The notes: generated by a model from the sequence alone, not told the origin. Numbered from the stretch's first letter, positions 359-41,929 are shown. The stretch is DNA of 64,000 nucleotides from Candidatus Limnocylindria bacterium (GCA_046566045.1 JBKHXL010000014.1:4917-68916), one strand, 5' to 3'. Numbers and translations: made by a program.

Positions 359-2167
359 TCAGGGGACGACGACCGTGGCCACGTCCGTGTGCGCCACCAG
401 CCGCTTGCCGGCCCAGGTGCCGAGCAGGATCTCGAGGCGGGCGTAGTACGTGCCGCCGGCCAGGCCCTCGAGCGTGGCCGTGGCGGCCGACGGCGAGTCC
501 GACGCCCAGACGGCCGACGCTCCCTCGAGGTAGCTCGGGGTCGTGTCGTCCTGCGCCAGGACGAGCTTGGCGAAGCTGAAGCACGCGGCCGGGCCACCGT
601 ACGGCAGCCAGTCGAGGACGACCGTGCCCGCCTCCTCGGTCCACTCGAGGGCGCCGAGCGCCTGCACGTCCTCGACCTCGGCCGTCGTCACGGCACTCGC
701 CGCGTAGGCCTGGTCGCCGCTCGTGAACGCGACGGCTCGCCAGGCGTACGTCGTCCCCGGCGCGAGGTCGACGTCGATGGCGCGCAGGATCGCCCGGTCG
801 GTGGCGTACAGCCCGTCCGGCGCGACGGCCGGGGCGACGGGCGGGTAGACCGGCGCGATCGAGCTCGAGGTCGAGCGCAGGCCCTGGTAGTGGTCGAAGC
901 CCTCCGCCGGGGCCTTCGTCCAGTCCAGCACGGCCGTCCCGCCCGGGCAGGCCGTGACGGTCAGGCCGAGGCTCGCGAGGGCGGGCGTCGGCGACGCCGT
1001 CGGCGCCGGTGTCGGGGCGGGGGTCGGCTTGGCGGTCGGGCGGGGCGTGGCCGTCGGCGACGCCGTCGGCGTGGCCGTCGGCGTGGGACTCGCGACCGGA
1101 TCGGTCGGCGGGGCGGGCGACGGATGGTCGGGCGTCGGCGCGAGCGACGGGGTGGCCGCCGGGCGAGGCGTCGCGGCCGGCGTCGCGGCGGGTGTGGGAT
1201 CGGGCTCGTCGAGGGCCGCCGTCAGGATCCCGAGGCCGAACCCCAGCACCCGGTCCCGCCGGCCGTTCCAACGCAGCCACGGGTCGTCGAGATCGGTCAC
1301 GGTCGCGTCGGCCAGCTCGCCGACCAGCGGCGCGCCACGGGAGAGCGTGACGAGCGCGACCTGGCCCTCCCGCATGAGGACGGCCAGGGCCGGCCCGTCG
1401 ATCGAGACGTCGTGTTCGATGCCGATCGCCCGAACGGTCTCGCCGCCCGTCGGGCCGGCGCGGCGGTCCAGGTCGAACGCCGTGCCGGTCGCGGTCCACG
1501 TGACGTCGGCGGTCCGCACCACGTAGCGCTCGACCGGCTCGGCCACCCGGTGCCAGGCACGTCCGGCACGCTGGTCGAGCTGCACCAGCCCACGGTCCAC
1601 GCCGTCGAGGCGGACGTCCGTGCCGCCGGCCAGGCGCGTCTCGCCGCCGGCCAGGGCCAGGGTCGCGGACCCGCGCGGGCCGGTCACGATACGGTCACCG
1701 GCGTGGAGCGTCACCCCCGCCGCCAGCGCGGACGCCGCGCCGTCGCGGACCAGGGTGGCATCGGTCGCGCCGATCACGCCGGCCTCGACCGGCCCCCCGT
1801 GGAGCCAGCGGCCGTCCAGGCCGAGCATGGCGACCACCACCACGGCCGCGAGTGCGGCGACCGACCAGCGCGGCAGGCCGACCGACAGGGGCGCACGGCG
1901 GACGACCCGCGGCCGGACGCGATCGAGCACGGGTGCCGCGCCGCTGCCGGGCGTCGTCGCGGGCATGGCGGCGAGCGCGCCACCGCTCGCGGGCGCCGCC
2001 CCGACGAGGCGGCTGCGCAGGTCCGCGGCGAACGTCGGCGAGGGCTGCGTGTCGCTCGCCCGAGCCCGGGCCCGGGCGCCGGCAGCCGCGAGGGCCGCCG
2101 CGAGGTCGGCGACGCCCGGCTCCAGGTCGTCGGGGAAGGGCACGATGCGCTCGTCGTCAGGCCACAT
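359..2167 (-). CDS. Anti-sigma factor: single TM helix, Pro/Thr-rich linker and two FN3/Ig-like extracytoplasmic domains
   Basis: ATG at 2167-2165 overlaps the stop of the upstream ECF sigma gene (ATGTGGCCTGA). It has a cytoplasmic N-terminus and a TM segment (WSVAALAAVVVVAMLGL). A PT-rich low-complexity stretch lies at about nt 1009-1234. The C-terminal domains (TVTACPGG...LDW...FDHYQGLRS...APGTTYAWRAVAF) are paralogous to the product of 2860..3975. The 690-aa ORF-track N-terminal extension is rejected. Confidence 0.7.
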   Translation of the reverse strand: MWPDDERIVPFPDDLEPGVADLAAALAAAGARARARASDTQPSPTFAADLRSRLVGAAPASGGALAAMPATTPGSGAAPVLDRVRPRVVRRAPLSVGLPRWSVAALAAVVVVAMLGLDGRWLHGGPVEAGVIGATDATLVRDGAASALAAGVTLHAGDRIVTGPRGSATLALAGGETRLAGGTDVRLDGVDRGLVQLDQRAGRAWHRVAEPVERYVVRTADVTWTATGTAFDLDRRAGPTGGETVRAIGIEHDVSIDGPALAVLMREGQVALVTLSRGAPLVGELADATVTDLDDPWLRWNGRRDRVLGFGLGILTAALDEPDPTPAATPAATPRPAATPSLAPTPDHPSPAPPTDPVASPTPTATPTASPTATPRPTAKPTPAPTPAPTASPTPALASLGLTVTACPGGTAVLDWTKAPAEGFDHYQGLRSTSSSIAPVYPPVAPAVAPDGLYATDRAILRAIDVDLAPGTTYAWRAVAFTSGDQAYAASAVTTAEVEDVQALGALEWTEEAGTVVLDWLPYGGPAACFSFAKLVLAQDDTTPSYLEGASAVWASDSPSAATATLEGLAGGTYYARLEILLGTWAGKRLVAHTDVATVVVP

Positions 2168-2765
2168 CGGTCGCCTCCCGTTCGATGATGGCGCGGAGCG
2201 CTCGCAGGGCCCGGTGATGACGCACGGCAAGGGTCGCCGGGCTGCACCCCAGGACGGTGCACTGTTCGTCGGTGGTGAGGCCGTCGAGATAGCGCAGGAC
2301 GAGGACCCGCCGCTGCGGTTCGGGCAGGGCAGCGAGGGCCCGAGCCAGCTCGTCGCGGTCGAGGGCGGTCGCCAGCGCGCGCGCCGCGCGTTCGTCGCCG
2401 ATGGTCGTCTCCGGCCCGTCGTCCGGCCCACCGTCGGTGGCGCGCCGCCCGAGCGGGATGGTCCGTCGGCTGCGCCTGACGTGGTCGATCACGGCATGAC
2501 CGGCGACGCGGTACAGCCAGCCCCCGAACGATTCGTTGCGGAAGTCCTCCCGGCGGACGGCCGACAGGGCGCGCTCGAAGGTCACGGCCGTGAGGTCCTC
2601 GGCGGTCGCGCGGTCGCCGACGCGACGGGCGATGTAGCCGTGGATGCGGGGCAGGTAGAAGTCGTACAGCTCCCCGAACGCGGACGCATCGACCCGGGCG
2701 CGGGCCACGAGGGCTCGCTCCCGGGTCGCGTCCAGGCGATGATCGGAGCTCGCATCACGGGACAT
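2157..2765 (-). CDS. ECF (sigma-70 family, group IV) RNA polymerase sigma factor
   Basis: 202 aa with sigma-70 regions 2 and 4 (FGELYDFYLPRIHGYIARRV ... LPEPQRRVLVLRYLDGLTTDEQCTVLGCSPATLAVRHHRA). Its stop overlaps the anti-sigma start. Confidence 0.9.
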   Translation of the reverse strand: MSRDASSDHRLDATRERALVARARVDASAFGELYDFYLPRIHGYIARRVGDRATAEDLTAVTFERALSAVRREDFRNESFGGWLYRVAGHAVIDHVRRSRRTIPLGRRATDGGPDDGPETTIGDERAARALATALDRDELARALAALPEPQRRVLVLRYLDGLTTDEQCTVLGCSPATLAVRHHRALRALRAIIEREATDVA

Positions 2766-2859
2766 GGAGGGCCCGATCGTGCGGGTGGCGGCCCGGCCCG
2801 GCCATCGGCCAGCAGTACCGCCTCCCGCCCATCGCGCGTGGGACCCTACGTCGCGTCCG

Positions 2860-3975
2860 CTACTCGACCGTGACGCCGGTCCAGGACGTGGTCCCGAGCA
2901 GGACCCACGAGCCGGACACCTGGCCCTTGGCCTCGACGAGGTAGTGGTAGGTCACCCCGACCTCCACGTCGTCGTCCACGAAGGCCGTCGTCCCGGCGTC
3001 CTCGATCTCGGCGCGCAGGCTGGCCGAACCGTCCACCTTGCGCAGGATCCGGTAGTGGCTGAAGCCCTCGCTGCCGAACGGCTCCCAGGCGACGGTCACG
3101 ACGCCGGCCTCGGAGCCCGCCTCGATCCACATGGCGTACGGCGTGGGCGCCGGCGTCTTCGTCGGCGCGGGCTCGTCCGGCGCCTCGAGCGACTTCGTGG
3201 CGGTCGCCGCCAGGACCTTGTAGCCGTCGTCCGTGCCGCGCACGCAGAACACGCGATACCAGGCGGTCGTGCCGGCGGGGGCGTGCTCGTCCCAGGCCTT
3301 GGTCGCCCCGCCCACCTCGGTCACGGCCACGACCTCGTCGCCGCCGCCGGTCGGCCACGACACGGTCTTGTCCGTCGAGCGCACGACCTTGTAGTAGTCG
3401 CCGCCGTCCGCCGGGCAACCGCTCCAGTCGATGAACACGGCGCCTTCCTTGTTGGCGAGGGTCAGGCTCATGACCGGCTTCTCGGTCGGCTTGGCGGTGG
3501 GCTTGGGGGTGGCGTCCGGCTTCTCGGTCGGCTTGGCGGTCGGCTTGGGGGTGGCGTCCGGCTTCTCGGTCGGCGTGGCGGTCGGCTTGGGCGTCGCGTC
3601 CGGCTCCTCGTCCGTCTCTGCCGGCTTCGCGGTGGGCGCGGTGGTGGGCGTCTTGGTCGGATCGGCAACCGAGGTCGGCTCGGCCTTCGCCGTCTCGTCT
3701 GCCACGTCGCTGGCGTCCGGCGCTTCGAAAGCGACGAAGGTCGGTGTCGGCTCGGCGTCGCCCTGGCTGCCGGCGAGGCCAAGATTCGCCCCGAGGGCGA
3801 TCGCGCCCATGAGCAGCGCGCCACCGATGGCGCCCGGCACGGACAGCCCAAGGCGTGGCGCCGGTCGCGGCGCGCGCGGCCGCGGGCCCGTCCGCTCGGT
3901 CAGCGGCTGCGTCCAATCGAAGCCATCGGCGCCCGCGCCGTCGAGCTCGTCCATGTCGTCCGGTTCGTATCCCAT
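2860..3975 (-). CDS. Membrane-anchored protein with a Pro/Thr/Lys-rich tandem-repeat linker and two FN3-like domains; paralog of the anti-sigma sensor domain
   Basis: TM helix (LGLSVPGAIGGALLMGAIALGANLGLAG). A 14-aa repeat (ATPKPTAKPTEKPD) occurs three times. The two C-terminal domains show the same W/C/Y pattern as the anti-sigma C-terminus. It sits 94 bp upstream of the sigma gene on the same strand. Confidence 0.75.
   Translation of the reverse strand: MGYEPDDMDELDGAGADGFDWTQPLTERTGPRPRAPRPAPRLGLSVPGAIGGALLMGAIALGANLGLAGSQGDAEPTPTFVAFEAPDASDVADETAKAEPTSVADPTKTPTTAPTAKPAETDEEPDATPKPTATPTEKPDATPKPTAKPTEKPDATPKPTAKPTEKPVMSLTLANKEGAVFIDWSGCPADGGDYYKVVRSTDKTVSWPTGGGDEVVAVTEVGGATKAWDEHAPAGTTAWYRVFCVRGTDDGYKVLAATATKSLEAPDEPAPTKTPAPTPYAMWIEAGSEAGVVTVAWEPFGSEGFSHYRILRKVDGSASLRAEIEDAGTTAFVDDDVEVGVTYHYLVEAKGQVSGSWVLLGTTSWTGVTVE
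3480..3615 (-). repeat. Three tandem copies of a ~42-bp in-frame repeat encoding (A/E)TPKPT(A/T)(K/T)PTEKPD
   Basis: The DNA shows ctcggtcggcttggcggt(g/c)ggcttggg(g/c)gtggcgtccggctt three times. Its translation on the minus strand is the repeated linker. Confidence 0.8.
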
Positions 3976-4205
3976 GGTCAGTCCCTCCCGAGACCTGTGT
4001 GTCGGCCGCCGGATGGATGACGGTGGCGGCCGGATGATTCCGACCCCTCCACAACGTCCGAGGGCGCGGATCCCTTACCGCGGCGCGACCATCCGATGGT
4101 CCGGGCTACACGCTGGGACCCCCGGCCCATCCACGGGAGCAGACCGGGCGAAGGGGAGACATCAGCCCTTCCGAACGACGGCCACCTGCCAGGAGACGCA
4201 CGACC

Positions 4206-5063
4206 ATGACGTCCATCGCCGCCGACGCCGGTGAACGCGAGCCCGCCCCCGGGCCCGGCTCCATCCCAGCCGACAAGAGCCGCTCCCTCCGCCGATGGAA
4301 CCGCTTCCTGACCCTGGCCCATGGCCTGCAGTTCGTGGCCATGATCGCGATCTCCCGGACCACGGCCGTGTTCGAGCCGACCGTCCCGACCGTCCGTCCG
4401 ATCATCGAGGACGGGCAGTTCACCGGGGTCGAGCCGTCGAGCGTCATGCTCTTCTCCATCCCGCTCGCGTACGTCATCGCCTCGTTCTTCTTGATGAGCG
4501 CGATCGCCCACGCCTCCGCCGGGTGGTTCCTGCGCAGCAGGTACGAGGCCTGGCTGGCTCGCGGCATGAATCCCCTGCGCTGGGTCGAGTACGCGTTCTC
4601 TTCCACCGTGATGATCGTGGCCATCGCCTACATCAGCTACATCACGGACTTCCCCGCGCTCATCGCCATCGCGGGCGCCAACGTCGCGATGAACCTGTTC
4701 GGATGGAGCATGGAAGCGGCCAACGAGGGTCGTCTGGAGGCCGGCCAGCGCATCGATTGGAAGCACTTCATCTTCGGGTGCATCGCCGGGATCGCGCCGT
4801 GGATCGGGATCTTCTCCATCATCTGGGCGTACTCCGCCCAGGAGGGCCTGCCCGCCGACGCGGGGATCCCGGCGTTCGTGTACGTGATCATCGCCAGCCT
4901 GTTCGTCGCCTTCAACGTCTTCGCGATCACGATGGTGCTGCAGTACCGCCGGGTCGGCCGCTGGCGCGAGTACCTCTACGGTGAGAAGACCTACATGGTC
5001 CTGAGCCTGGTCGCGAAGTCGCTCCTCGCCTGGCAGGTCTGGTCGGGCACGCTGCGGCCGTAG
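4206..5063 (+). CDS. Heliorhodopsin (microbial rhodopsin with inverted topology)
   Basis: 285 aa with 7 TM helices. It is strongly similar to characterised heliorhodopsin 48C12 across TM3 (RWVEYAFSSTVMIVAIAY, conserved Glu counterion), TM6 (FGCIAGIAPWIGIF) and TM7, where the retinal Schiff-base Lys lies in YMVLSLVAKSLLAWQVWSGTLRP. ATG at 4206. Confidence 0.85.
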   Translation: MTSIAADAGEREPAPGPGSIPADKSRSLRRWNRFLTLAHGLQFVAMIAISRTTAVFEPTVPTVRPIIEDGQFTGVEPSSVMLFSIPLAYVIASFFLMSAIAHASAGWFLRSRYEAWLARGMNPLRWVEYAFSSTVMIVAIAYISYITDFPALIAIAGANVAMNLFGWSMEAANEGRLEAGQRIDWKHFIFGCIAGIAPWIGIFSIIWAYSAQEGLPADAGIPAFVYVIIASLFVAFNVFAITMVLQYRRVGRWREYLYGEKTYMVLSLVAKSLLAWQVWSGTLRP

Positions 5064-5224
5064 GCTCCTGCCGGACGCGACGCCTGTCCTGCCACGCCTC
5101 GCTGCGCCGCGGTCGCGAGCCGTTGACCCTTGCCCTCGGCGGCGCGACGGAGTAGCCTCCCGTCCCAACGAGCGAACGTTCGTTAGGGTGCTGGACAGCA
5201 CGGCCCGGGGAGGATCAATCGAGC

Positions 5225-5824
5225 GTGGTCGAGACCGCCCGCCGGCGCGAGATCGAGGACGCTGCGAGCGTCCTGTTCCGGGAGCGCGGCTATGCCGCGA
5301 CGAGCGTCCGTGACATCGCGCGCGCCCTCGACATCCAGGGCGCCAGCCTGTACGCCCACGTGACCTCCAAGCAGGAAGTGCTGTGGTCGATCGTGGACGG
5401 CACGGCGACGCGCTTCGAGGCGGCCGCGCAGCACGCCCTGGCCCAGCACGCCGAGCCCAGAGACCGACTGGCCGCGCTCGTGCGCGGGCACGTGGCGGTG
5501 CTGCTCGACGACATCGGCCGCGCCAGCGTCTTCATCCACGACTGGCGATCGCTCGACGCCGAGCGCCGCGCGACCATCCTGCGCCGCCGGGACGCCTACG
5601 AGCGGCACGTCCGCGAGGTCATCGAGGCGGGCGTGGCGGCGGGGCGATTCGAGGTCGCGGACCCTGGCGTCGCGGCCGCGTTCATCCTGACCGCGCTCAA
5701 CGGCATCGTGGTGTGGTACCGCCCCGACGGCCGGCTCGACGCCGCCGGGCTCCAGGACGTCTTCGCCGACCTGGCGCTGCGGGCCGTGGGGGCCGGGCGC
5801 GACGATCGACCGGGCGCGGCATGA
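5225..5824 (+). CDS. TetR/AcrR family transcriptional regulator, likely a PaaR-type regulator of the downstream paa operon
   Basis: N-terminal TetR HTH (ASVLFRERGYAATSVRDIARALDIQGASLYAHV). GTG start with GGGAGGA about 10 nt upstream. Its stop overlaps the paaA start (ATGA). Confidence 0.8.
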   Translation: MVETARRREIEDAASVLFRERGYAATSVRDIARALDIQGASLYAHVTSKQEVLWSIVDGTATRFEAAAQHALAQHAEPRDRLAALVRGHVAVLLDDIGRASVFIHDWRSLDAERRATILRRRDAYERHVREVIEAGVAAGRFEVADPGVAAAFILTALNGIVVWYRPDGRLDAAGLQDVFADLALRAVGAGRDDRPGAA

Positions 5825-6822
5825 CCGATCCGCTTGCCCTCGATCCCATCCTCGCCCCGGCCGAGCGGGTCGGCGCCGGGGCGCCCGCGCCGGCGCGCGC
5901 CGACGGCGAGGCCGAGGCGGCCTGGTCCGACCGCTTCGAGGCGCACGTCATGAGCGGCGGGAAGGTGGAAGCCACCGACGCCATGCCCGACGCCTATCGC
6001 TCGGCGGTCCTGCGCTTCGTCGAGATGCACGCCAACTCCGAGCTGATGGGCGTCCTGCCCGAGCGAGAGTGGCTCATGCGCGCGCCGACCCTGCGCCGCA
6101 AGCTGGCCCTCACGGCCAAGGTCCAGGACGAGGTCGGCCACGCCCAGCTGCTGTACCGGGTGGCCGAGGACCTCGGCAAGCCGCGCGAGGCGATGTTCGA
6201 CGACCTGCTCGCCGGCCGGACCAAGTTCCACAACGTGTTCCACTACCCGACCCGGACCTGGGCGGACGTCGGGATCATCGCCTGGCTGGTGGACGCGGCG
6301 GCGATCGTCGCCCAGCAGGCCCTGCGCGACAGCAGCTACGCGCCGTACGCCCGGACCATGCAGAAGATCTGCTGGGAGGAATCGGTCCACATCATGCACG
6401 GCCGCGACATCGTGGTGACCCTGGCGACGGGCACCGCGCGACAGCGCGCCGACGTGCAGGACGCGCTCGAGCGGTGGTGGGGCCCCCTGATGCAGATGCA
6501 CGGCCCGCGCTCGCCCCGCGAACGGGACACGGACCTGCGCTGGCGGATCAAGGCGAAGACGTCCGAGGAACTCCGCCAGGAGTTCCTGACCATCTACGTG
6601 CCGCGCATCCGCGAGCTGGGCCTGGTCATCCCCGACGGCGAGCTCGCGCTCGACGAGGCGACCGGGACGTGGCGCTACCGAGAGCCGGACTGGAACGAGC
6701 TGCGCGCCGTGGTCACGAACCGCGGCCCGATGTCCGAGTCTCGCCTCGCCTTCCGACGCCTGGCCCGGGAGGAGTCCGCGTGGGTCCGGGCGGCGCTGCT
6801 CGGCGCGTCGGTCGCGGCATGA
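5821..6822 (+). CDS. paaA: 1,2-phenylacetyl-CoA epoxidase subunit A
   Basis: Ferritin-like di-iron oxygenase fold. Motifs FVEMHANSELMG, QDEVGHAQLLY and WEESVHIMHGRD are present. ATG at 5821 overlaps the TetR stop. Confidence 0.9.
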   Translation: MTDPLALDPILAPAERVGAGAPAPARADGEAEAAWSDRFEAHVMSGGKVEATDAMPDAYRSAVLRFVEMHANSELMGVLPEREWLMRAPTLRRKLALTAKVQDEVGHAQLLYRVAEDLGKPREAMFDDLLAGRTKFHNVFHYPTRTWADVGIIAWLVDAAAIVAQQALRDSSYAPYARTMQKICWEESVHIMHGRDIVVTLATGTARQRADVQDALERWWGPLMQMHGPRSPRERDTDLRWRIKAKTSEELRQEFLTIYVPRIRELGLVIPDGELALDEATGTWRYREPDWNELRAVVTNRGPMSESRLAFRRLAREESAWVRAALLGASVAA

Positions 6823-7154
6823 CCGAGCCGATCGTCCCCGGACCGAGGCTGGAGCCGTGGGAGGTCTTCCGGCGCGAGAAGGAGGGCGACGCGATGCGCC
6901 ACGGGGGGAGCGTCATGGCGCCGGATGCCGAGCTCGCCCTGCACTACGCCCGCGAACTGTTCGGTCGACGTCAGGAGAGCGTCCGGCTGTGGGTCGTCCG
7001 CCGGGCGGACATCCTGGACCTCGACGACCCGGACCTGCTCCAGCCGCCGCTCGACCGGTCGTTCAAGAAGCCCGGCGGGTACGTCATGCGCGACAAGCTC
7101 GCCGCGGCGCGGTCGCAGGCCGGCCAGGCCAGGCCGCGCCCTCGCCCGCGATGA
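6819..7154 (+). CDS. paaB: 1,2-phenylacetyl-CoA epoxidase subunit B
   Basis: 111 aa with the typical PaaB size and sequence (EPWEVFRREKEGDAMRHGGSVMAPDAELALHYARELF). ATGA overlap with paaA. Confidence 0.85.
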   Translation: MTEPIVPGPRLEPWEVFRREKEGDAMRHGGSVMAPDAELALHYARELFGRRQESVRLWVVRRADILDLDDPDLLQPPLDRSFKKPGGYVMRDKLAAARSQAGQARPRPRPR

Positions 7155-7930
7155 CCGCCGCCGTCCCGACGGCGCTCGCACCCGCGCTTGTCGCGCCGGT
7201 CGCGGAGCTGCTCCTGGCCATGGCCGACGACGAGGCGATCCTCGGCTGGACCGACTCCGAGTGGACCGGCATCGCGCCGCTGCTCGAGGAGGACGTGGCC
7301 ATGAGCTCGCTGTCGCAGGACGAGCTGGGGCACGCCGCCGCGCTGTACGACCTGCTCGCCGGGCTCATCGGCGGTGACCGCGACGCGCTGGCCTACGACC
7401 GGGCTCCGGCCGACTACCGCCACGCTCGGCTGCTCGACCACGGCCGAGGTGACTGGGCCATGACCATCGCGCGGCGCTTCCTGTACGAGTCGGCGGACGC
7501 CGTCCGGCTCGAGGCGCTGGTCGCGGGGAGCTGGGCGCCACTGGCCGAGCTCGCGCGCGCGATCGCCCGCGAGGAGCGCTATCACCGGATGCACGTCGAC
7601 ACGTGGTTCGAGCGCCTCGCACGAGCGGAGGGCGAGCCGCGCGAACGGCTCCTGGCCGCGCTCGCGATCCTGGCCCCGGATGCGGCCACGGTGTTGGCGC
7701 CGCTCGATGGGGAGGCGGCCCTCGTCTCGGCGGGCATCCTGGCCGCCCCGCTGGGCGAGCTCGAGGCGCGCTGGCGCGCCCTCGTCGAGCCCGTGCTGCG
7801 CCGGCTGGACCTGCCCGTGCCGGCCGCCCGTGCCGCGGCGCGCGGTCGGACCGAGCACGGCCCCGCCTTCCTCGCGCTGCATGACGCGTTCACCAGCGTC
7901 CGGCATGCCGACCCTGGGGCGACGTGGTGA
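7151..7930 (+). CDS. paaC: 1,2-phenylacetyl-CoA epoxidase subunit C
   Basis: 259 aa, ferritin-like, PaaC-type (DDEAILGWTDSEWTGIAPLLEEDVAMSSLSQDELGHAAALYDLL). ATGA overlap with paaB. Confidence 0.85.
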   Translation: MTAAVPTALAPALVAPVAELLLAMADDEAILGWTDSEWTGIAPLLEEDVAMSSLSQDELGHAAALYDLLAGLIGGDRDALAYDRAPADYRHARLLDHGRGDWAMTIARRFLYESADAVRLEALVAGSWAPLAELARAIAREERYHRMHVDTWFERLARAEGEPRERLLAALAILAPDAATVLAPLDGEAALVSAGILAAPLGELEARWRALVEPVLRRLDLPVPAARAAARGRTEHGPAFLALHDAFTSVRHADPGATW

Positions 7931-8403
7931 CGGCCGCGAGCGGCGTCGCGCCGGCGACCGAGGCGGACGTCCGGGCGATCCTCGCCGGTGTCATGGATCC
8001 CGAGCTGCCGGTCGTGTCGATCGCTGACCTCGGCATGGTCGGGCTGGTCGTGGTCACGCCCGCGGCGATCCAGGTCGACGTGCTGCCGACCTTCCTCGGC
8101 TGCCCGGCCATCGAGGTCATCCTCGACGCGGTCCGGACGTCGCTGGCGCCGCTCGACGTGCCGGTCGTCGCCCGGGTCAGTCACGCGACCCCGTGGACCT
8201 CGGATCGGATCAGCGAGGCGGGGCGGCACGCCCTCGCCTCGGCCGGCATCGCTCCACCGACCGACGCGCCGGATCCGGCCTGCCCCTGGTGCGACTCGGA
8301 CCGGACGGTCCGGGACAGCGCCTTCGGTCCGACCCAGTGCCGCTCGCTCCATTACTGCCGCGCCTGCCGCCAGCCGTTCGAAGCGTTCCGAACGCTGCGA
8401 TGA
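7924..8403 (+). CDS. paaD: Phenylacetate-CoA oxygenase subunit PaaD
   Basis: 159 aa. N-terminal MIP18/SUF-like domain ([24 protein letters not shown]) and C-terminal Cys cluster (CPWC...CRAC). GTGGTGA overlap with the paaC stop. Confidence 0.8.
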
Positions 8404-9451
8404 CCCGGGTCGTCGGGATCGTCGGGGCCGGGCGCATGGGCACCGGGATCGCCCAGGTCGTGGTCGAGGCGGGCGACCGCGTCCGCATCCACGACGCGTC
8501 GCCAGCCGCCGTCGACGCGGCGCTCGAGCGGGTGCGCGACGGCCTCGCCCGGCGCGCCGACGGGCGCCACCCGACGACGGGGCCGGACTGGATCGCGGAG
8601 CGGATGGACCGCATCGCGACGGCCGCGACGCCGGCGGCGCTGGCGCGGGAAGCCGACCTGGTCATCGAGGCGGTGGTCGAGGATCTCGACGTGAAGCGCG
8701 AGCTCTTCCATGCGCTCGACGCGGCGGCGGCCCCCGACGCGATCCTGGCGACCAACACGAGCGCCCTGCGCGTGCACGACATCGCGGCCGCGACGGCCTC
8801 GCCGGAGCGGGTGATCGGCCTGCACTGGTTCAATCCGCCGACGCGCATGGCGCTGGTCGAGGTCATCGCCGCGGAGCGGACGAGCGCGGAGGTGGTGGGC
8901 CGCGCCATCGCCGCGGTCACGGCCTGGGGCCGGACCCCGGTGCGCAGCGCGGACACCCCGGGGTTCATCGTCAACCGGGTCAATCGCCCGTTCACGATCG
9001 AGGCGCTTCGCCTGCTCGAGGCGCGGATCGCCGACGTCCCGACCATCGACGCCGCGCTGCGCGGCGCCGGGTTCCCGATGGGCCCGTTCGAGCTGATGGA
9101 CCTGACCGGCATCGACATCAGCCTGGCCGCGGCCCGCGGCGTGTGGGAGGGGCTCGGTCGGCCCGAGCACCTGCGGCCATCGCCCATCCAGGAAGGGCTC
9201 GTGGCTGCCGGGCGGCTGGGGCGCTCGACCGGCGAGGGGTTCTACCGCTACGTCGAGGGACGACGCGGCGAGCCGGCCGAGGGCTTCGCGTTCACGCTGC
9301 CGACCGTGCCCGACCCGGCCTCGATCGCCGCCTGCATCGTGGGCGCCATCGACGCCGAGGCGGCCCGCGCCGCCGCAGCCGGTGTCGCCAGCCGCGACGA
9401 CATCGAGCTCGCGCTGCGCCTCGGGGCGGGCCACCCGGTACGATCGACGCC

Positions 9452-9455
<4 letters not shown>
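8400..9455 (+). CDS. paaH: 3-hydroxyacyl-CoA (3-hydroxyadipyl-CoA) dehydrogenase
   Basis: NAD-binding [15 protein letters not shown] and the HFFNP-like motif [15 protein letters not shown] overlaps on both sides. It sits where paaE is normally found. Confidence 0.85.
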
Positions 9456-10684
<1,229 letters not shown>

Positions 10685-10742: not shown

Positions 10743-11777
10743 CTAGGGGGTTTCGACGCGAATGCGAATCACCGTAAGGTCGTTCGCAACGACGAGAAAC
10801 GTGGCCTCGCCTGCGACGTACGTGTGGCCCTCGCTATCGATCCCGCCGATCAACCGGACCCTTGTCTCCCGCGCAGGTGCACCTGGGTATCGGCAGGAGC
10901 CGTCGGGGGCCGTGACGAGCCCGACGCCATCGCCGTCGCCAGGCGCGCACATCAGCCCTGGCACTGGCCTACCTTGCCCATCCACGGCGAGGATCACGAG
11001 ATCACCCACCGGCCCGTCCCACGGTGGCTCTCCAGCCCAGTCGATGCGCACCCACTCCGGAGCGGCAAAGTGCGCGCGAATCTCGACGTCCAGGTCGCGC
11101 CGCATCGAGATGTACGTAAGCTCGACGATTCCGCCATCCATCGAGTTGGTCCCGACGTGCAGTAGCCGAGCGTCGACGGTGTCGAACCAGCCTTCTTCAG
11201 ATCGGACCCTTTCGACGAACGCGATCTGCTCGAGGATACGTGGGGCCACCTCACGGACCTCCCAGAGGGCCGCGGGCGAGAGCAAACGACCGAGCGCTGC
11301 GCGATGCACGTCCACGTTTCGGTAGACCTCGACAACGACGGTCGAACCGGCCGATGGATCGATGTACGAGCCGTGCCAGTCCTCGGGCACTGTCATCCCG
11401 TACTCCGCAACGACTTGGCCGACTTCGACGGCGGCACTGTTGCGGGCTAGGAGATTGTCGAGCTCCCATGGCAGCAACGGAACGCCGAACATGTCGACAC
11501 CCTCCTGACTGGAGGGATCGGCGCTGACGATCGAGATCCACCGGTCGTCGGCGCGGATGCCATACGTCTCTCGGAACTCCCTCGACTCTGCCACCTGCGC
11601 CGGCGTAAGGGTGGACGTGGCCGTCGTCTCGGTCGCTGGGCTCGGGCCTGATGGCGTTCGACCTGATGAGTCGGCACAGCCTGCCACGACCAAGATGGTG
11701 ACGAGCGATGCCGACCGAATGACCACCGATATAGTCACGTGGCCGAAGAGCGGTCGCCGCCGGGCGAGGTTGAGCAT
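10743..11777 (-). CDS. Hypothetical lipoprotein in a lower-GC patch
   Basis: Predicted lipoprotein signal peptide MLNLARRRPLFGHVTISVVIRSASLVTILVVAGC with an LVVAG-C lipobox. No recognisable catalytic domain. Local GC is visibly lower than in the flanks. Confidence 0.55.
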   Translation of the reverse strand: MLNLARRRPLFGHVTISVVIRSASLVTILVVAGCADSSGRTPSGPSPATETTATSTLTPAQVAESREFRETYGIRADDRWISIVSADPSSQEGVDMFGVPLLPWELDNLLARNSAAVEVGQVVAEYGMTVPEDWHGSYIDPSAGSTVVVEVYRNVDVHRAALGRLLSPAALWEVREVAPRILEQIAFVERVRSEEGWFDTVDARLLHVGTNSMDGGIVELTYISMRRDLDVEIRAHFAAPEWVRIDWAGEPPWDGPVGDLVILAVDGQGRPVPGLMCAPGDGDGVGLVTAPDGSCRYPGAPARETRVRLIGGIDSEGHTYVAGEATFLVVANDLTVIRIRVETP

Positions 11778-12346
11778 CACGTGGTGCGCTGAAGTCAGCA
11801 ATTGGCACTCGTACAGAGGCTATACGGGGCCCAGAACTCGTCGTACTGGATGGATCCGATGTCTACGGGGCTATACCATCCGTAGTTTGGAAGTGGGTCG
11901 TCGTCGAGGTCCGAGTGCACCCATCGACGCGATCCTCTTGTAGTGTTCGTCAAGCGAGTCTGTGAAGAGGAAGACTGGAACGCCAGGTTGAGGCGGTAGA
12001 AGTGGTGTAACGCGGGACCGCGGTGCCGGAGTGCTGAGACGTCGGCCACCGCGGAGCCCCAGACTCGTCGAGACGACCAAGTCATCGACGAAGGAGCACC
12101 ACGATGGCCGAAGGACACAGCATGACGGCTGCCGAGCGAGCCGGCGGCCCGACTCCGGCAGTGTACCTGCCGGCCGTTTCGCTGAAGTCAGCGCACTTAC
12201 GGTCGGCGACGCGTCCGGCCCCGTGTCGTCCGCGATTTCGTCGCAACACTTGTCGAAACCCGTTGCCCTGCGTACGATGTCCCCATCGCGTCCCGTTGAC
12301 GCCCACCGTACGCGTAACCGCCCGTCCGAAGGAGGACGCACACCCG

Positions 12347-23588: not shown

Positions 23589-25154
23589 GTGACCGACAAC
23601 GAGCTCCCGGCCGGGGGCCCCGCGCCCCGACGCCGCGGCGGCGGTCGCCTGGGACACGATCGGCCGTCCGGCCCGCCGCAGCGGCCGTGGGCCCAGCCGC
23701 GCCTGGGCTTCCGCCCCACCGAGCTGCTGTCGGCGGACGAGCTCGAGTCGATCCACCTCGCGTCGCTGCGGATCCTGGCCGAGATCGGCATGGACTTCCT
23801 CGACGCGGACGCTCGCCAGGCGCTGCGCGCCGCGGGGGCCGAGACCTCGCCCGACAGCCAGCGCGTCCGCTTCGACCCGGACCTCGTGATCGAACGCATC
23901 CGGACCGCCCCGCCCGAGTTCACCCTGCACGCCCCCAACCCGGACCGCCACCTGCGCATCGGCGGCGACTGGCTGGCCTTCGGGACCGTCGGGAGCCCGC
24001 CCAACGTGGCCGACCTCGACCGCGGCCGGCGGATCGGCAACCGCGAGGACTACCAGAACCTGCTCCGCCTCGGCCAATCCCTGACGCCGGTCCACTTCCT
24101 GGCCGGCTACCCGGTCGAGCCCGTGGACCTCCACCACGGCGTGCGCCATCTGCACGCCACGTTCGACGCCCTGACCCTCATGGACAAGGCGATCCACTGC
24201 TACAGCCTCGGCCGGCAGCGCAACCTCGACGTCCTCGAGATGGTGCGCATCGTGCGCGGCATCGACGAGGCGACCGTGGACCGCGAGCCGTCCGTCTTCA
24301 CCGTGGTCAACTCGAGCTCGCCGCTGCGCCTCGACGCGCCGATGCTGCAGGGCATCATGGCCTTCGCCGCGCGCAACCAGGTCGTGTGCATCACCCCGTT
24401 CACGCTCAGCGGCGCGATGGCCCCCGTGACCCTCGCCGGCGCCCTGGCCCAGCAGAACGCCGAGGCGCTGGCGGGCATGGTCCTGACCCAGGTGGTGCGA
24501 CCGGGGGCGCCGGTCATCTACGGCGGCTTCACCTCGAACGTGGACATGCAGTCGGGGGCGCCGGCCTTCGGCACGCCCGAGTACATGCGCACGGCGATGA
24601 TCGGCGGGCAGCTCGCCCGGCGCTACGGCGTGCCGTACCGGAGCTCGAACGTGTGCGCCGCGAACGCGCTCGATGCGCAGGCCGCCTACGAGAGCGTGTT
24701 CAGCCTGTGGGGCGCGATCATGGGCGGGGTCAACCTGCTGATGCACGGGGCCGGCTGGATGGAGGGCGGCCTGCACGCGAGCTACGAGAAGATGATCCTC
24801 GACGCCGAGCTGCTGGGGATGGTCGAGGCGTTCCTCGACCCGGTCGTGGTGGACGACGACACGCTCGGTTTCGAGGCCATGCAGGAGGTCGGTCCGGGCG
24901 GCCACTTCTTCGGCGCGGCGCATACCCAGTCGCGCTTCAAGACGGCGTTCCACAAGCCGATGCTCAGCGACTGGCGCAACTACGAGACGTGGCAGGAGGC
25001 CGGCTCCCCGGAGGTGCCGGGCAAGGCCAACCGCATCTGGAAAGAGTTGCTGGCGAGCTACGAGCCACCGCCCATGGACGCGGCCGTGCGCGAGGAGCTC
25101 GAGGCGTTCGTCGCCCGGCGCGTGGCCGAGGGCGGCGTCCCGACGGATTACTAG
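23589..25154 (+). CDS. MttB-family (trimethylamine methyltransferase superfamily, non-pyrrolysine) quaternary-amine:corrinoid methyltransferase homolog
   Basis: 521 aa with a TIM-barrel MttB-type sequence throughout (LSADELESIHLASLRILAEIGMDF ... C-terminal KANRIWKELLASYEPPPMD). No in-frame amber codon. No corrinoid-protein or MtgA-like gene lies nearby. Confidence 0.75.
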   Translation: MTDNELPAGGPAPRRRGGGRLGHDRPSGPPQRPWAQPRLGFRPTELLSADELESIHLASLRILAEIGMDFLDADARQALRAAGAETSPDSQRVRFDPDLVIERIRTAPPEFTLHAPNPDRHLRIGGDWLAFGTVGSPPNVADLDRGRRIGNREDYQNLLRLGQSLTPVHFLAGYPVEPVDLHHGVRHLHATFDALTLMDKAIHCYSLGRQRNLDVLEMVRIVRGIDEATVDREPSVFTVVNSSSPLRLDAPMLQGIMAFAARNQVVCITPFTLSGAMAPVTLAGALAQQNAEALAGMVLTQVVRPGAPVIYGGFTSNVDMQSGAPAFGTPEYMRTAMIGGQLARRYGVPYRSSNVCAANALDAQAAYESVFSLWGAIMGGVNLLMHGAGWMEGGLHASYEKMILDAELLGMVEAFLDPVVVDDDTLGFEAMQEVGPGGHFFGAAHTQSRFKTAFHKPMLSDWRNYETWQEAGSPEVPGKANRIWKELLASYEPPPMDAAVREELEAFVARRVAEGGVPTDY

Positions 25155-25230
25155 CGATGCGCTACGGCACGTCGATCGACCAGGTCCGACCGGGATCGAC
25201 CTGCGACTGGTCGACGACTAGTCTACGTTC

Positions 25231-25470
25231 ATGAAGACCATCGGTTCGTACGCAGCCAAGACGCACCTGCCACGCCTGCTCGATGAGGTGGAGCGGGGAG
25301 AGCGGATCACCATCACGAAGCATGGGCGGCCCGTCGCGATGCTCGTGCCCCCCGGGACGACGGCGGCGGTCGACGCCGAGGCACTGATCGGCTGGATGCG
25401 CGAGTTCCGCAGAGACCACCCCCTCGATGGCGCGACCATCCGGGACTTGATCGACGACGGACGTCGCTGA
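25231..25470 (+). CDS. Type II antitoxin, Phd/YefM (VapB-like) family
   Basis: 79 aa. MKTIGSYAAKTHLPRLLDEVERGERITITKHGRPVAMLVP is the canonical Phd/YefM N-terminus. Its stop overlaps the toxin start (TGATG). Confidence 0.85.
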   Translation: MKTIGSYAAKTHLPRLLDEVERGERITITKHGRPVAMLVPPGTTAAVDAEALIGWMREFRRDHPLDGATIRDLIDDGRR

Positions 25471-25877
25471 TGTTCGTCGTCGATGCGTCAGTCATCCTCG
25501 CGTGGAGCCTTGAAGATAAGTCGAGCGAAGCAGCGGAATCGGCGGTCGAGCGCCTCCTCGCGGAGGGCGGCCTCGCTCCTGCGCATTGGCCGCTCGAGAT
25601 CGCGAACGGCCTCCGATCGGCCGAGCGTCGCGGGTGGATCGACGAGCCGTCCATCCGTCGACTGGCGGCCAGACTTGCCGGGCTCCCGGTCGACATCGCG
25701 CCGGTCGAACTGTCGACGGCCCTGGGCGTCATCGCGGCGGCTCGCCGTCATGACCTCTCCGTGTACGACGCTGCCTACCTCGATCTCGCCGATGTTCGTG
25801 GGCTCCCCCTCGCGACCGTCGACGATCGACTCGCCCGTGCATGCCGCGCGGCCGGCGTGCCGCTGATCAGCGACTGA
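25470..25877 (+). CDS. vapC: PIN-domain ribonuclease toxin VapC
   Basis: 135 aa. MFVVDASVILAW starts the PIN fold, with acidic residues at the expected positions (D5, E..., D...). Confidence 0.85.
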   Translation: MFVVDASVILAWSLEDKSSEAAESAVERLLAEGGLAPAHWPLEIANGLRSAERRGWIDEPSIRRLAARLAGLPVDIAPVELSTALGVIAAARRHDLSVYDAAYLDLADVRGLPLATVDDRLARACRAAGVPLISD

Positions 25878-25958
25878 TCACCGCGTGCATGAGTCTGACC
25901 CGCCGCCGCTCGCGATCGCTCGCGTAGGCTTCTGTCGTCATCAAGTCCGGAGGGCCCG

Positions 25959-28424
25959 TTGAAGCGAGAGACCCAGGTCGTCGTCATCGGTGGCGGTGTC
26001 GTCGGCGCGAGCGTCCTGTACCACCTGACCAGGCTTGGCTGGACCGACGTGATGCTCCTGGAGCGGCGCGAGCTGACCGCGGGTTCCACGTGGCACGCGG
26101 CCGGCGGGATGCACACCCTCAACGGCGACCCGAACGTGGCTCGCCTGCAGCAGTACACGATCCAGCTGTACGAGGAGATCCAGCGCAGCTCCGGCCAGGA
26201 CTGCTCGATCCACCTGCCGGGCGGCCTGATGCTGGCCGACACGGAGGTCCGCATGGACTTCCTGCGCATGGCGCAGGCGCGCGGTCGCTACCTGGGCATG
26301 GAGCTGGAACTCATCACGCCCAAGGAGGCGCAGGACCTCTTCCCCTTGCTCGATCCGCAGTACTTCGTCGGCGCCCTGTACGACCCGGTCGAGGGCCACG
26401 TCGACCCGTCCGGCGTGACCCGGGCGTACGCGAAGAGCGCCCAGCTGGCCGGCGCGGAGGTCCACCAGCACACGCCCGTCACGGGTCTGTCGCAGCGGAC
26501 CGATCGGACCTGGGACGTCGCGCTGGAGAACGGCGAGTCGATCCATGCCGAGCATGTCGTCAACTGCGGCGGCCTGTGGGCGCGCGAGGTGGGGCGGATG
26601 GTCGGCATCGAGCTGCCCGTCCTGGCCATGGAACACCACTACCTCATCACCGAGGACATGCCGGAGGTCGCCGCCCACGTCGCGCGGACCGGTCGCGAGA
26701 TGCCCATGGCCCTCGACTTCAAGGGCGAGATCTACATCCGCCAGGAGGGCGGGGCGATGCTGCTCGGTACGTACGAGCAGGCCTGCGTGCCGTGGTCGCC
26801 GAAGCAGACGCCGTGGGACTTCGGCTCACAGCTGCTGAAGCCCGACCTGGAGCGCCTGACGCCCGAGCTGTCGGTCGCGTTCAAGCACTACCCGGCCATG
26901 GGCACGACGGGGATCCGGCGCGTGGTCAACGGCCCGTTCACGTTCGCCCCGGACGGCAACCCGCTGGTCGGCCCGATCCGCGGGCTGCGGGGCTTCTGGG
27001 TCGCCTGCGGGGTCATGGCCGGGCTGTCCCAGGGCGGCGGTGTGGGCCTGGCCCTCGCCACCTGGATGACCGCCGGCGACCACGGCGACAGCGGCATGGA
27101 CATCTGGGGCATGGACGTCGCCCGCTTCGGCGACTACGCCACGCTGGCGTACACCAACGCCAAGGTCCAGGAGAACTACCGGCGCCGGTTCCGGATCACC
27201 TTCCCGAACGAGGAACTACCCGGCGCCCGGCCCCTGCTGACCACGCCGATCCACGACCGCCTGACCGCGGCCAACGCGGTCTGGGGCGCGACCTTCGGCC
27301 TGGAGCACGCCCTGTGGTTCCAGGAGCCCGGGCTCGAGCCGAAGGAGGAGGTCACCTTCCGGCGCTCGAACGCCTGGCCGCAGGTCGCCGCCGAGGTGCG
27401 GGCCGTCCGCGAGCGCGTCGGCATGACCGAGATCTCGAACTACGCCAAGTACCGCGTCACGGGCCCGGGCGCCGAGGCCTGGCTGTCGTCGCTGCTGACC
27501 GCGCGGATGCCGGCGCCCGGGCGCATCACCCTGACGGCGATGCTCAACGACGCGGGCCGCATCGTCGGGGAGTTCACGGTCGCCCGGGCGTCCGAGGCGG
27601 ACGAGTTCCACCTCTTCGGCTCGCTGCCGGCCGAGGTCCACCACTCGCGCTGGTTCATCCATCACCTGCCCGACGACGGGTCCGTGCGCTTCGAGGTCCT
27701 CGGGCTCGGCCTGGTGGGACTGTCCGTGGCCGGGCCGCGCTCGCGCGACGTGCTGCAGGCGGTCGCGCCCGACCTCGACCTGTCGACCGAGGGCTTCCCG
27801 TTCATGACCTTCCGGCGGGTGGACCTCGGGATGATCCCGGTCCATCTGGCTCGCATCAACTACGCCGGCGATCTGGGCTACGAGCTGTGGGTCGCGCCGC
27901 AGTACCAGCGCGCCCTGTTCGACGCGATCGTGGCCGCGGGCGAGCCCCACGGCCTGCGCCTGTTCGGGATGCGCGCCCTGATGTCGCTTCGCCTCGAGAA
28001 GAACTACGGCACGTGGTTCCGCGAGTACCGGCCGATCTACACGGTCCCGGAGGCCGGGCTGCAGCGCTACGTCCGCCTCGATCACGACTTCATCGGTCGC
28101 GAGGCGTACGAGCGCCAGCTGGCAAGCGCCGTCGAGCGCCGGCTCGTGGCCCTGGTCGTCGAGCCCGATCCGGACGACCCGGCCGACGTCATCGGCGACG
28201 AGCCGATCTGGCATCACGACGAGGTCGTGGGCTGGGTCACCTCCGGCGGGTACCTGCACAGTGCTGGCGCCTCGCTGGCGTTGGGCTACGTGCCGGCCGC
28301 GCTGGCCTCGCCGGATGGCCCGGGCGGCGACGGGTTCGAGATCGAGATCATCGGCCAGCGGCGGCCGGCGCGCCTCCAGCCGGAGCCGATGTTCGACCCG
28401 ACCGGCGCCCGGATGCGCCAGTGA
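25959..28424 (+). CDS. Dimethylglycine/sarcosine dehydrogenase family flavoenzyme (FAD-dependent oxidoreductase fused to a GcvT-like folate-binding domain)
   Basis: 821 aa. N-terminal VVVIGGGVVGASVLYHL dinucleotide fold with a covalent-FAD His context. The C-terminal aminomethyltransferase-like domain includes YAGDLGYELW. TTG start with GGAGGG about 7 nt upstream. Confidence 0.85.
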   Translation: MKRETQVVVIGGGVVGASVLYHLTRLGWTDVMLLERRELTAGSTWHAAGGMHTLNGDPNVARLQQYTIQLYEEIQRSSGQDCSIHLPGGLMLADTEVRMDFLRMAQARGRYLGMELELITPKEAQDLFPLLDPQYFVGALYDPVEGHVDPSGVTRAYAKSAQLAGAEVHQHTPVTGLSQRTDRTWDVALENGESIHAEHVVNCGGLWAREVGRMVGIELPVLAMEHHYLITEDMPEVAAHVARTGREMPMALDFKGEIYIRQEGGAMLLGTYEQACVPWSPKQTPWDFGSQLLKPDLERLTPELSVAFKHYPAMGTTGIRRVVNGPFTFAPDGNPLVGPIRGLRGFWVACGVMAGLSQGGGVGLALATWMTAGDHGDSGMDIWGMDVARFGDYATLAYTNAKVQENYRRRFRITFPNEELPGARPLLTTPIHDRLTAANAVWGATFGLEHALWFQEPGLEPKEEVTFRRSNAWPQVAAEVRAVRERVGMTEISNYAKYRVTGPGAEAWLSSLLTARMPAPGRITLTAMLNDAGRIVGEFTVARASEADEFHLFGSLPAEVHHSRWFIHHLPDDGSVRFEVLGLGLVGLSVAGPRSRDVLQAVAPDLDLSTEGFPFMTFRRVDLGMIPVHLARINYAGDLGYELWVAPQYQRALFDAIVAAGEPHGLRLFGMRALMSLRLEKNYGTWFREYRPIYTVPEAGLQRYVRLDHDFIGREAYERQLASAVERRLVALVVEPDPDDPADVIGDEPIWHHDEVVGWVTSGGYLHSAGASLALGYVPAALASPDGPGGDGFEIEIIGQRRPARLQPEPMFDPTGARMRQ

Positions 28425-30631: not shown

Positions 30632-30998
30632 GCGGATGCCCGGCGTGCGGGTGGTGGCCGAGCCGGCCGCCCTCGATGGCGCGCGCTGGGCCGGCGATGG
30701 GGTCATCGTCCTGCGGACCGCTCCGGACGAGGCGCTGGCCCTGGGCGCGACCGGTGTCGAGGTCGCCGATCCGCACGCCATCGTCGAGGCCGACGCCGGC
30801 TTCGTCGGCGGGCCCGTGGATCTCGAGCGGGTCATGGCCCATGTCGAGTGGGGGCTGCCCGCCGAGCGCCCGGCCCTCGCCCAGGGTTCGATCGCGGGCG
30901 TGCCGGCGAAGCTGTGGCTGACCGATGCGGGCGCGCTCCTGGTCGTCCAGGCGGCCTGGGCCGACGAGCTCGCCGAGCGGATCGGGTGGCGGGCATGA
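30618..30998 (+). CDS. soxG: Sarcosine oxidase gamma subunit
   Basis: About 120 aa, small subunit, in the position and size expected of SoxG. Start is GTG 30618 or ATG 30636. Confidence 0.6.
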   Translation: MPGRERMPGVRVVAEPAALDGARWAGDGVIVLRTAPDEALALGATGVEVADPHAIVEADAGFVGGPVDLERVMAHVEWGLPAERPALAQGSIAGVPAKLWLTDAGALLVVQAAWADELAERIGWRA

Positions 30999-32215: not shown

Positions 32216-32228
32216 TGGGCGGCCGCTG

Positions 32229-32471
32229 ATGCACCACCTCGACTGCCCGCGCTGCGGCCGCCGGCCGCTGGAGGAGTTCACCTTCGGCGGCGAGCGTCGC
32301 CCGGTGCCCGACACCATCACCGACCCGGACGAGCGTGACTTCGACGAGGTCTGGATCCTCGAGAACCCGGACGGTGAGACGACCGAGCGCTGGTTCCACG
32401 GTCACGGCTGCCGGCGCTGGCTGACCGTCCGGCGCGACACGTCGATCGACCGCGTGCTGGAGGTGCGCTGA
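32229..32471 (+). CDS. soxD: Sarcosine oxidase delta subunit
   Basis: 80 aa with a Zn-ribbon-like pattern (CPRCG ... HGHGCRRW), typical of SoxD. Confidence 0.8.
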   Translation: MHHLDCPRCGRRPLEEFTFGGERRPVPDTITDPDERDFDEVWILENPDGETTERWFHGHGCRRWLTVRRDTSIDRVLEVR

Positions 32472-32472
32472 G

Positions 32473-33669: not shown

Positions 33670-33689
33670 CGGCCACCCGCGGCGGTCCG

Positions 33690-34030
33690 CGCCCGGCCCG
33701 TCCGCCCCGGCCCGTCCGTCGGACCTGCCCGGCGTGGCCCGGCCCGGCGTGGCCCGGCCCGTGCGCCGCGGCCTCGCCCCGGCCCGGCCTCGCCCCATCC
33801 GGCCACGCCCCATCCGGCCCGGCCGTCCGCCCCGGCCCGTCCGCCCCGGCCCGTCCGGCCCCGGCCCGTCCGGCCACGCCCCGTCCGACCTGGCCCGTCC
33901 GCCCCGGCCCGCACGTCGCCTCGACCGCCGTGGCCCGCCCCGGCCCGGCCTCGCCCCATCCGGCCACGCCCCGTCCGGCCCGGCCGTCCGCCCCGGTCCG
34001 TCCCGTCCACCCCCGGTCCGCCACTCCGCC
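33690..34030. repeat. C-rich low-complexity degenerate tandem repeats (cggcccgtccg(c/g)cccgg units); G-rich, G4-capable on the minus strand
   Basis: About 340 bp of direct repeats built from the cccgtcc / ccggccc motif. They translate in a shadow frame to PGPSGHAPS runs. No coding signal. Confidence 0.7.
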
Positions 34031-34175
34031 GTGCTTCAGAGGCTGCAGATCGACCTCGAAGGCCGACCATGGCACACCCTCGGCCTGGATCCGTGCCTGT
34101 GAGGCCCGTTCGGGCGTCGAGGCGCACCGGCCCGGAGGCTACAGGGCCTGGCTGCAGTCTCTGAAGCACGCACGA

Positions 34176-41756: not shown

Positions 41757-41929
41757 GCTGACTCGCGGGGTTCGTTCGCGTGGTGTCCGGACGCACCGGT
41801 TCCCGGTGCCAAGCGGCCTCGGGGACTGGCCCATCCGTACCATTCCGCGGTACCCTGCGGTGGCTATCATCCCGATGGGGTGCCGAGTATCCGGCCCGCA
41901 TCGACCTCCGCATCTCCGAGGTTCCGCGC

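Follow-up and report, generated by a model that had tools for sequence, protein, structure and literature searches.

The gene studied here encodes, with near certainty, a canonical and intact heliorhodopsin (HeR), and the simplest history of its locus is that it lies where it does because a single gene was recently inserted between two older, unrelated units, the g04-sigma-anti-sigma module and PaaR-paaABCD. If the gene did arrive in this way, its neighbours and the lack of retinal genes nearby tell little about what the protein does. By analogy with HeRs described elsewhere, we consider it probable (roughly 0.6) that the product is a slow-cycling light sensor, inserted as a single gene, that acts on a partner encoded elsewhere in the genome. 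Throughout, "the window" refers to the whole 64,000-nucleotide stretch that was analysed; the features discussed are collected in Table 1.

Analyses of the open reading frame and of its 285-residue product, the length given in the original prediction, indicated that the family assignment made there was sound. The frame starts with an ATG, has the sequence AGGAGA (4191–4196) 9 nt 5' of this start, and showed strong coding statistics, with a GC3 of 0.95. The match to PF18761 (E = 5.6e-79, 265.3 bits, against a curated threshold of 26.7 bits) spanned the model completely (1–242 of 242), and the NCBIfam equivalog NF038020, "heliorhodopsin HeR", matched with 258.6 bits, likewise far above its cutoff of 100 bits. 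A sequence search of the PDB gave 48C12 (E ~1e-50) and TaHeR (5e-47) as the best matches, with residues 25–285 aligned. The alignment to 48C12 (PDB 6su3, 6uh3, 9ljj) was full-length, at 44% identity, and so included TM3–TM7, the region over which the prediction had expected likeness to HeRs.

The correct name of this protein is already public, as the exact sequence is in GenBank as "heliorhodopsin HeR" (MFP5341685.1, from a 70,886-bp contig of a Candidatus Limnocylindria bacterium), where it is flanked by MFP5341684.1 (g04, hypothetical) and MFP5341686.1 (TetR/AcrR). Homologs at 75–94% identity were abundant, and their sources were Chloroflexota/Candidatus Limnocylindrales MAGs. An exact-protein look-up identified the identical coding sequence on three short Logan metagenome contigs from three independent metagenomes, and comparison with the closer clade members gave dN/dS values of 0.10–0.22. 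Together, the metagenome matches and the dN/dS values indicated that the gene is intact and under purifying selection.

To compare the protein with characterised HeRs, we mapped 36 residues from the list of structurally or functionally important residues in 48C12 (Kovalev et al., PMC7049168). Thirty-four were identical and all 36 were kept or conservatively replaced, the only changes being S113 to Thr and Q213 to Met, the latter a frequent natural variant at this position (PMC7049168). The two motifs highlighted by the original prediction were located at residues 125–129 (RWVEY, in TM3) and 267–272 (SLVAKS), with E128 aligned to the 48C12 counterion E107 and the TM7 lysine, K271, aligned to its Schiff-base lysine K241. 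K271 was invariant in 80 of 80 clade sequences, and E128, S98, S132 and S267 (the serines corresponding to S76, S111 and S237, which stabilise the counterion of 48C12) were likewise clade-invariant. In the Schiff-base cavity, whose residue list was also taken from PMC7049168, H39, H102, N32, N122, Y113, Y129, R125, E260 and E170 matched H23, H80, N16, N101, Y92, Y108, R104, E230 and the E149 region of 48C12. The TM5 proline was kept, and the mapped key residues were almost all invariant across the 80 related sequences.

The number of Lys and Arg residues was 14 on the side of the N-terminus and the BC, DE and FG loops and three on the opposite side, a distribution that fits the N-in topology (inverted, and family-defining) predicted by the positive-inside rule. 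An AF2 model made with 30 homologs, of moderate confidence (pLDDT 70, pTM 0.65), had seven helices and two elements specific to HeRs, a beta-hairpin in the A-B loop (strands 59–68 and 71–81) and a helix (110–118) in the B-C loop, which is nearly invariant within the clade. When this model was compared with the PDB by Foldseek, the top 10 chains were all HeRs (E 1e-13 to 1e-9, TM 0.69–0.79), whereas type-1 rhodopsins scored only E>6e-3.

The window HeR therefore resembles 48C12 and TaHeR (6is6) in its counterion Glu, Schiff-base Lys, His pair, Schiff-base cavity and hydrophobic barrier residues, and also in the A-B loop beta-hairpin, B-C loop helix, TM5 proline and predicted N-in topology. It differs from both in having about 24 additional N-terminal residues and slightly longer A-B, D-E and E-F loops, and from 48C12 in having Met for Gln213. 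A further difference is the host, which is a high-GC member of the Chloroflexota rather than an actinobacterium or archaeon. This host, Candidatus Limnocylindria, is consistent with the monoderm character of HeR hosts, as Chloroflexi have been described as monoderm (PMC6169038).

Table 1. Features at and around the heliorhodopsin gene (positions counted from the first letter of the window).
Feature	Position	Strand	Basis or comment
g02, putative membrane anti-sigma (~600 aa)	359–2167	-	One TM, weak FecR-like domain, PT linker
g03, ECF sigma factor	2157–2708	-	Pfam Sigma70_r2/r4_2/ECF and NCBIfam
g04, single TM, PT-rich linker, two beta-type C-terminal domains	2860–3975	-	First gene of sigma module; MFP5341684.1
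Putative ancestral promoter/leader of g04-sigma-anti-sigma operon	4004–4102	-	Conserved with relatives' g04-proximal spacer
Upstream spacer, probably brought by the insertion	4103–4205	+	Unalignable to spacers of HeR-less relatives
HeR coding sequence	4206–5063	+	285 aa; Pfam/NCBIfam, PDB sequence matches, residue map, AF2 and Foldseek, dN/dS
Downstream spacer	5064–5172	+	Distal part lineage-specific; TetR-proximal part (~5127–5186) conserved with L094
Candidate PaaR-type operator CGAACGTTCGTTAG	5173–5186	+	39 bp upstream of TetR start
TetR-family regulator (TetR_N and TetR_C_24)	5225–5824	+	Overlaps paaA start (5821)
paaA, paaB, paaC, paaD	5821–8403	+	Pfam
3-hydroxyacyl-CoA dehydrogenase	8400–9455	+	Pfam; after paaD
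Thiolase	9452–10684	+	Pfam; after 3-hydroxyacyl-CoA dehydrogenase

The arrangement noted originally, with the HeR gene upstream of a TetR regulator and between a sigma module and the paa operon, was confirmed, the HeR gene ending 161 bp upstream of the TetR gene that leads paaABCD. Sixty-two genes were predicted in the window by a self-trained caller based on codon usage, and all of them were run through Pfam. On the left, the divergent module begins with g04 and ends with g02, which follows the sigma gene with an 11-bp overlap. The two C-terminal domains and the PT-rich linker are common to g02 and g04, and the domains are paralogous. In g04 the linker is encoded by a 42-bp tandem repeat (3.3 copies, 94% matches, 3474–3610), so that the length of the linker is likely to vary. 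The gene had been described as encoding an FN3 membrane protein divergent from HeR; the single TM and the orientation stood, and the FN3 label proved weak. By hmmscan, neither the whole protein nor its C-terminal half had a Pfam match even at E<=10, and only precomputed matches to PF25833 (Fn3_SaeA_3rd), 'faint' where marked, were available for g04 (P0121) and many of its orthologs. We therefore prefer to call it a beta-domain protein, FN3-like at best. An exact-protein look-up of g04 returned no match.

The intergenic sequence next to g04 (4004–4102) aligned to the g04-proximal spacer of five relatives in which HeR is absent (L086, L087, L090, L092 and L093; z = 9–16), and this conservation in HeR-less loci marks it as the probable ancestral promoter region of the g04/sigma operon. 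It contains a palindrome, GACCATC-C-GATGGTC (4087–4101), and a minus-strand pair of motifs, GGTAA-N18-CGTT, which may be an autoregulated ECF promoter. A second ECF sigma gene (63089–63703), whose product is 42% identical to g03, is followed by a single-TM ORF running past the end of the window, and the two are probably a paralogous sigma/anti-sigma module.

On the right, the TetR gene is preceded by CGAACGTTCGTTAG, an exact match to CNAACGNNCGTTNG, the operator consensus of Thermus thermophilus PaaR (PMC9493321, citing Sakamoto 2011). This match was the only one in the 64 kb, where 0.05 would be expected by chance. In L086, L087/88 and L090/91 the same operator precedes the TetR start by 17–45 bp, and in L094 it lies within the HeR-TetR spacer; the TetR gene travels with paaABCD in relatives that have no HeR. 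Based on this phylogenetic footprint, the TetR protein is, as judged from sequence, a PaaR-type autoregulated repressor of the paa operon and not a HeR partner, and it loses the value as HeR context that had been attached to it. The window TetR resembles the phenylacetyl-CoA-responsive, TetR-family PaaR of T. thermophilus in heading paaABCD behind an exact copy of the operator consensus; the likeness rests on the operon and operator of a neighbour of HeR, with binding and effector presumed. The conserved operator suggests that members of this class of the Chloroflexota regulate the breakdown of phenylacetate in the PaaR manner.

The original prediction held that the genomic context of the HeR gene was informative, and comparison with related loci did not uphold this. 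We surveyed 80 HeR loci of the clade (±10 kb) in reference genomes by tblastn with all 62 window proteins, and orthologs of the sigma, anti-sigma, g04, TetR and paa genes were beside HeR in none of the 80. HeRs with 89–90% and 83% identity to that of the window were in unrelated contexts, one beside an ABC/FtsX transporter and a beta-lactamase and two beside a cNMP-binding protein. With regard to the latter, a small cNMP_binding-domain protein is encoded directly after HeR on the same strand in L097 (8957–9373) and L098 (4162–4578), and downstream of HeR with one unannotated gene between in L085 (2822–3256); it could be another recurrent HeR neighbour in the nearer subclade, whose HeRs are 83–90% identical.

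For the reverse view, we followed the g04 orthologs (49–56% identity) in relatives. In L087/88, L090/91, L092 and L093 the order was GGDEF, Fe-S, thiolase, 3HCDH, paaDCBA and (TetR), divergent from g04, sigma and anti-sigma, and then ECH genes; HeR was absent from the spacer of 200–590 bp between g04 and TetR or paaA. In L086 the position that HeR occupies in the window, between paaR and g04, held a gene for a 755-aa PAS-HisKA-HATPase-Response_reg hybrid kinase (3649–5916). Both HeR flanks were thus syntenic without HeR in five relatives (L086, L087/88, L090/91, L092 and L093), and sensory genes appear to be gained and lost especially readily in the slot between paaR and g04. Relatives also differ at or beside another position: between the thiolase and Fe-S genes the window has a segment of lower GC (10743–12346; 0.67 against ~0.74) with one weakly coding no-match ORF, L093 a 315-aa protein of unknown family, and L092 an SBF-family transporter.

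The nearest HeR-bearing relatives, L094–96, have the order ECH, HeR, TetR, paaABCD without the sigma module; their HeR is 90.5% identical to that of the window and begins 81 bp after the ECH gene on the same strand. Collinearity between the window and L094 extends over 4190–9000 and 1–358, from which it follows that the additional sequence of the window, 359–4189, is the sigma module. Based on these comparisons, the simplest history is a recent insertion of a single gene (~1.07 kb, ~4103–5172) into a divergent promoter region that predates it. The ancestral order would have been ECH, sigma module and paaR-paa; the entry of HeR beside paaR would have produced the arrangement in the window, and the sigma module would subsequently have been lost in the L094 lineage.

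Examination of the spacers on either side of the gene gave few further features. Scans of 2700–5900 for sigma-70 promoters and intrinsic terminators were empty, and a promoter-like pair, TTGCCC-N17-TAGCCT (5130–5158), was read by eye and is below the consensus threshold of the scan. The upstream spacer shares only short motifs, such as CCCATCCACGG, with L094 and other HeR loci. We considered a portable HeR promoter, for which the flanks were compared with those of 82 other HeR loci, and set it aside because the best z, about 5 in 160 comparisons, was unconvincing. A search for a mobile-element signature around HeR identified only short, low-identity repeats, with no flanking repeats or mobile-element genes.

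Genes were also called de novo in the 80 loci and clustered, and the cluster representatives were searched against Pfam. Among the more distant members (70–78% identity; the L042–L081 group, e.g., L047, L049, L064 and L069) a recurrent arrangement emerged, in which leftward SDR and MerR-B12 genes precede rightward genes for a DUF4397/fasciclin protein, an SRPBCC-NAD(P)-binding protein, HeR and in some cases c15, followed by leftward genes for glutamine synthetase (GS) and an amino-acid permease. HeR and the SRPBCC-NAD(P)-binding gene, which share a strand, are often directly contiguous, with a median gap of -32 bp. MerR-B12 was a neighbour in 27 of 80 loci, GS in 23 and the SRPBCC-NAD(P)-binding protein in 20, with at least one of them in 36. 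Kim et al. (2024) described ten frequent classes of HeR neighbour, which include GS, MerR regulators and SDR-type NAD(P) oxidoreductases, and our survey of 80 Limnocylindria genomes extends the published classes to this class of the Chloroflexota.

In one actinobacterial pair, HeR has been shown to bind GS, with activation by light, and both effects require basic residues in cytoplasmic loop 3 (PMC9529153); regulation of GS has been demonstrated for this one actinobacterial HeR only. In the window HeR, R248, R249 and R252 form a basic cluster in ICL3 with the i, i+1, i+4 spacing of K216/K217/K220 in AbHeR, to which they appear to be positionally equivalent. The system thus resembles the AbHeR-GS pair of Actinobacteria bacterium IMCC26103 (PMC9529153) in protein family, in the basic loop-3 cluster and, across the Limnocylindria clade loci, in the 23 of 80 in which GS adjoins HeR. 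It differs in that the window has no GS gene and in that GS and HeR in the clade form a convergent pair and are not members of one operon. No gene of the partner classes grouped by Kim et al. (2024) adjoins HeR at this locus, and GS, MerR-B12, the SRPBCC-NAD(P)-binding protein, photolyase and ABC transporter were all absent as partner genes from the 64 kb, so the partner of this particular HeR is a guess.

Based on published HeR biology, we infer that the protein would bind all-trans-retinal at K271 with E128 as counterion, would not pump ions, and would form a long-lived photointermediate. This intermediate would alter the cytoplasmic loops, which would bind and modulate a partner protein. 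GS would be the leading, best-supported partner candidate in the clade and the NAD(P)-binding/SRPBCC protein the second, with expression of HeR often placed beside a LitR/CarH-like MerR-B12 regulator; for the window HeR, the genes of any such partners would be elsewhere in the genome.

An alternative that we regard as unlikely, although it fares best of those considered, is that HeR acts alone, either as a conductor of protons or ions that is gated by light, of the kind represented by the viral V2HeR3, or as a light-dependent enzyme or lipid-remodelling protein. Proton transport has been published for V2HeR3 and lipid remodelling has been proposed from an association with DegV/DUF2177, and HeR does stand alone here and in many of the clade loci. 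However, the window HeR keeps the full set of polar and hydrophobic residues of the non-transporting 48C12 and is of the bacterial subfamily type rather than viral, and the ten annotated recurrent neighbour clusters included no DegV or DUF2177.

A good deal less probable is a coupling of HeR to its local neighbours, in which a light signal would pass to the anti-sigma or g04 and so to the ECF sigma, or in which phenylacetate catabolism would be under light or photo-oxidative control. In other bacteria, responses to light and to singlet oxygen do run through pairs of ECF sigma and anti-sigma factors (CarQ/CarR, RpoE/ChrR, LitS), the hybrid sensor kinase of L086 occupies the same slot, and the HeR-TetR-paa junction is kept in L094–96. 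In addition, position -2 is occupied by an ECF sigma gene in the window, L005, L014/L019/L020 and L045, the gene being divergent from HeR in all but L045, where the two share a strand; sigma-like genes were at rank -2 in 6 of 72 loci, compared with 15 of 1261 genes overall. Were this association real, it would represent convergent recruitment of non-orthologous ECF sigma operons in three or four lineages. However, the sigmas at rank -2 are only 26–33% identical between lineages, the genes at -1 and -3 are unrelated, and three of the six cases are close relatives, which leaves the enrichment marginal given shared ancestry and the 16 ranks tested. With cases that are non-orthologous and phylogenetically clustered, we read the enrichment as coincidence or, at most, a weak lead. 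The coupling is further opposed by the synteny of the sigma module and paa genes without HeR in five relatives, by the presence of HeR without the sigma module in L094–96, and by the conserved operator that the TetR gene has of its own. Sigma factors, TetR and paa are also outside the ten published neighbour classes (Kim et al. 2024).

A version of this coupling that we consider more doubtful still is that the slot between ECH and paaR gathers sensory inputs (the ECF module, the PAS kinase of L086, and HeR) and that HeR feeds light to the ECF/g04 module or the paa regulon; if true, it would be the first link of a heliorhodopsin to sigma-factor signalling or aromatic catabolism. In our preferred reading, of a sensor with a partner elsewhere, the neighbours are due to the recent insertion and not to conserved linkage, so that the locus does not make HeR function more testable. 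The locus then matters little beyond good annotation, and HeR function stays debated. It does provide a worked example of guilt-by-association failing, which could prevent a wrong inference of a HeR-sigma or HeR-phenylacetate connection.

The original prediction also drew attention to the lack of blh, crtY, crtB and crtI in the 64 kb. This was correct as an observation: none of the 62 gene calls matched Blh/BCD, phytoene synthase, lycopene cyclase, a CrtI-type protein or a type-1 rhodopsin, and no multi-TM Blh-like candidate was identified in the gaps and no-match ORFs of the window. The genes that matched DAO and Pyr_redox are part of a sarcosine-oxidase/dimethylglycine cluster or encode an SQR-like protein. 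The absence is not remarkable, however, as it applies to the 64-kb window and repeats the published norm for the vicinity of HeR, blh being rare among HeR neighbours and its genome-wide co-occurrence being mostly where another rhodopsin exists (Chazan et al.). An unknown retinal pathway has been suggested for HeR hosts (Chazan et al.), and a lateral fenestration in HeR has been proposed as a capture route for exogenous retinal. Retinal would in this case come from genes outside the window, from such a pathway, or by uptake.

The recent insertion and the absence of retinal-pathway genes from the window might also be taken to mean that HeR is a functionless passenger, a recently transferred opsin that lacks a source of chromophore, which we consider highly improbable given the dN/dS of 0.10–0.22, the intact state of every key residue, the identical coding sequence in three metagenomes, the 90.5%-identical ortholog at the same junction in L094–96, and the fact that HeR hosts commonly lack blh and may capture exogenous retinal through the proposed fenestration.

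Elsewhere in the window, gene-free GC-rich repeats were located at 33685–34374 and 35629–35741, comprising (GCCCG)n with 15-mer repeats and (GGGAC)x21; this repeat DNA, which had no Rfam match, includes a 92-bp tandem repeat of 2.2 copies (96% matches). The region 41397–49438 encodes a tRNA-Ile(TAT) (42321–42396) among several no-match ORFs, a DNA methylase (45100–46047) and a 1067-aa AAA16-TPR-LuxR regulator (46235–49438), and may be an integrated or variable region. A catabolic cluster of methylamine/glycine-betaine type (23589–33669) encodes an MttB-family methyltransferase, a DAO-GCV_T dimethylglycine-dehydrogenase-like protein, sarcosine oxidase subunits (alpha-like, beta-like and SoxD) and an Fe-alcohol dehydrogenase, and includes a gene for a Phd/YefM antitoxin (25231–25470).
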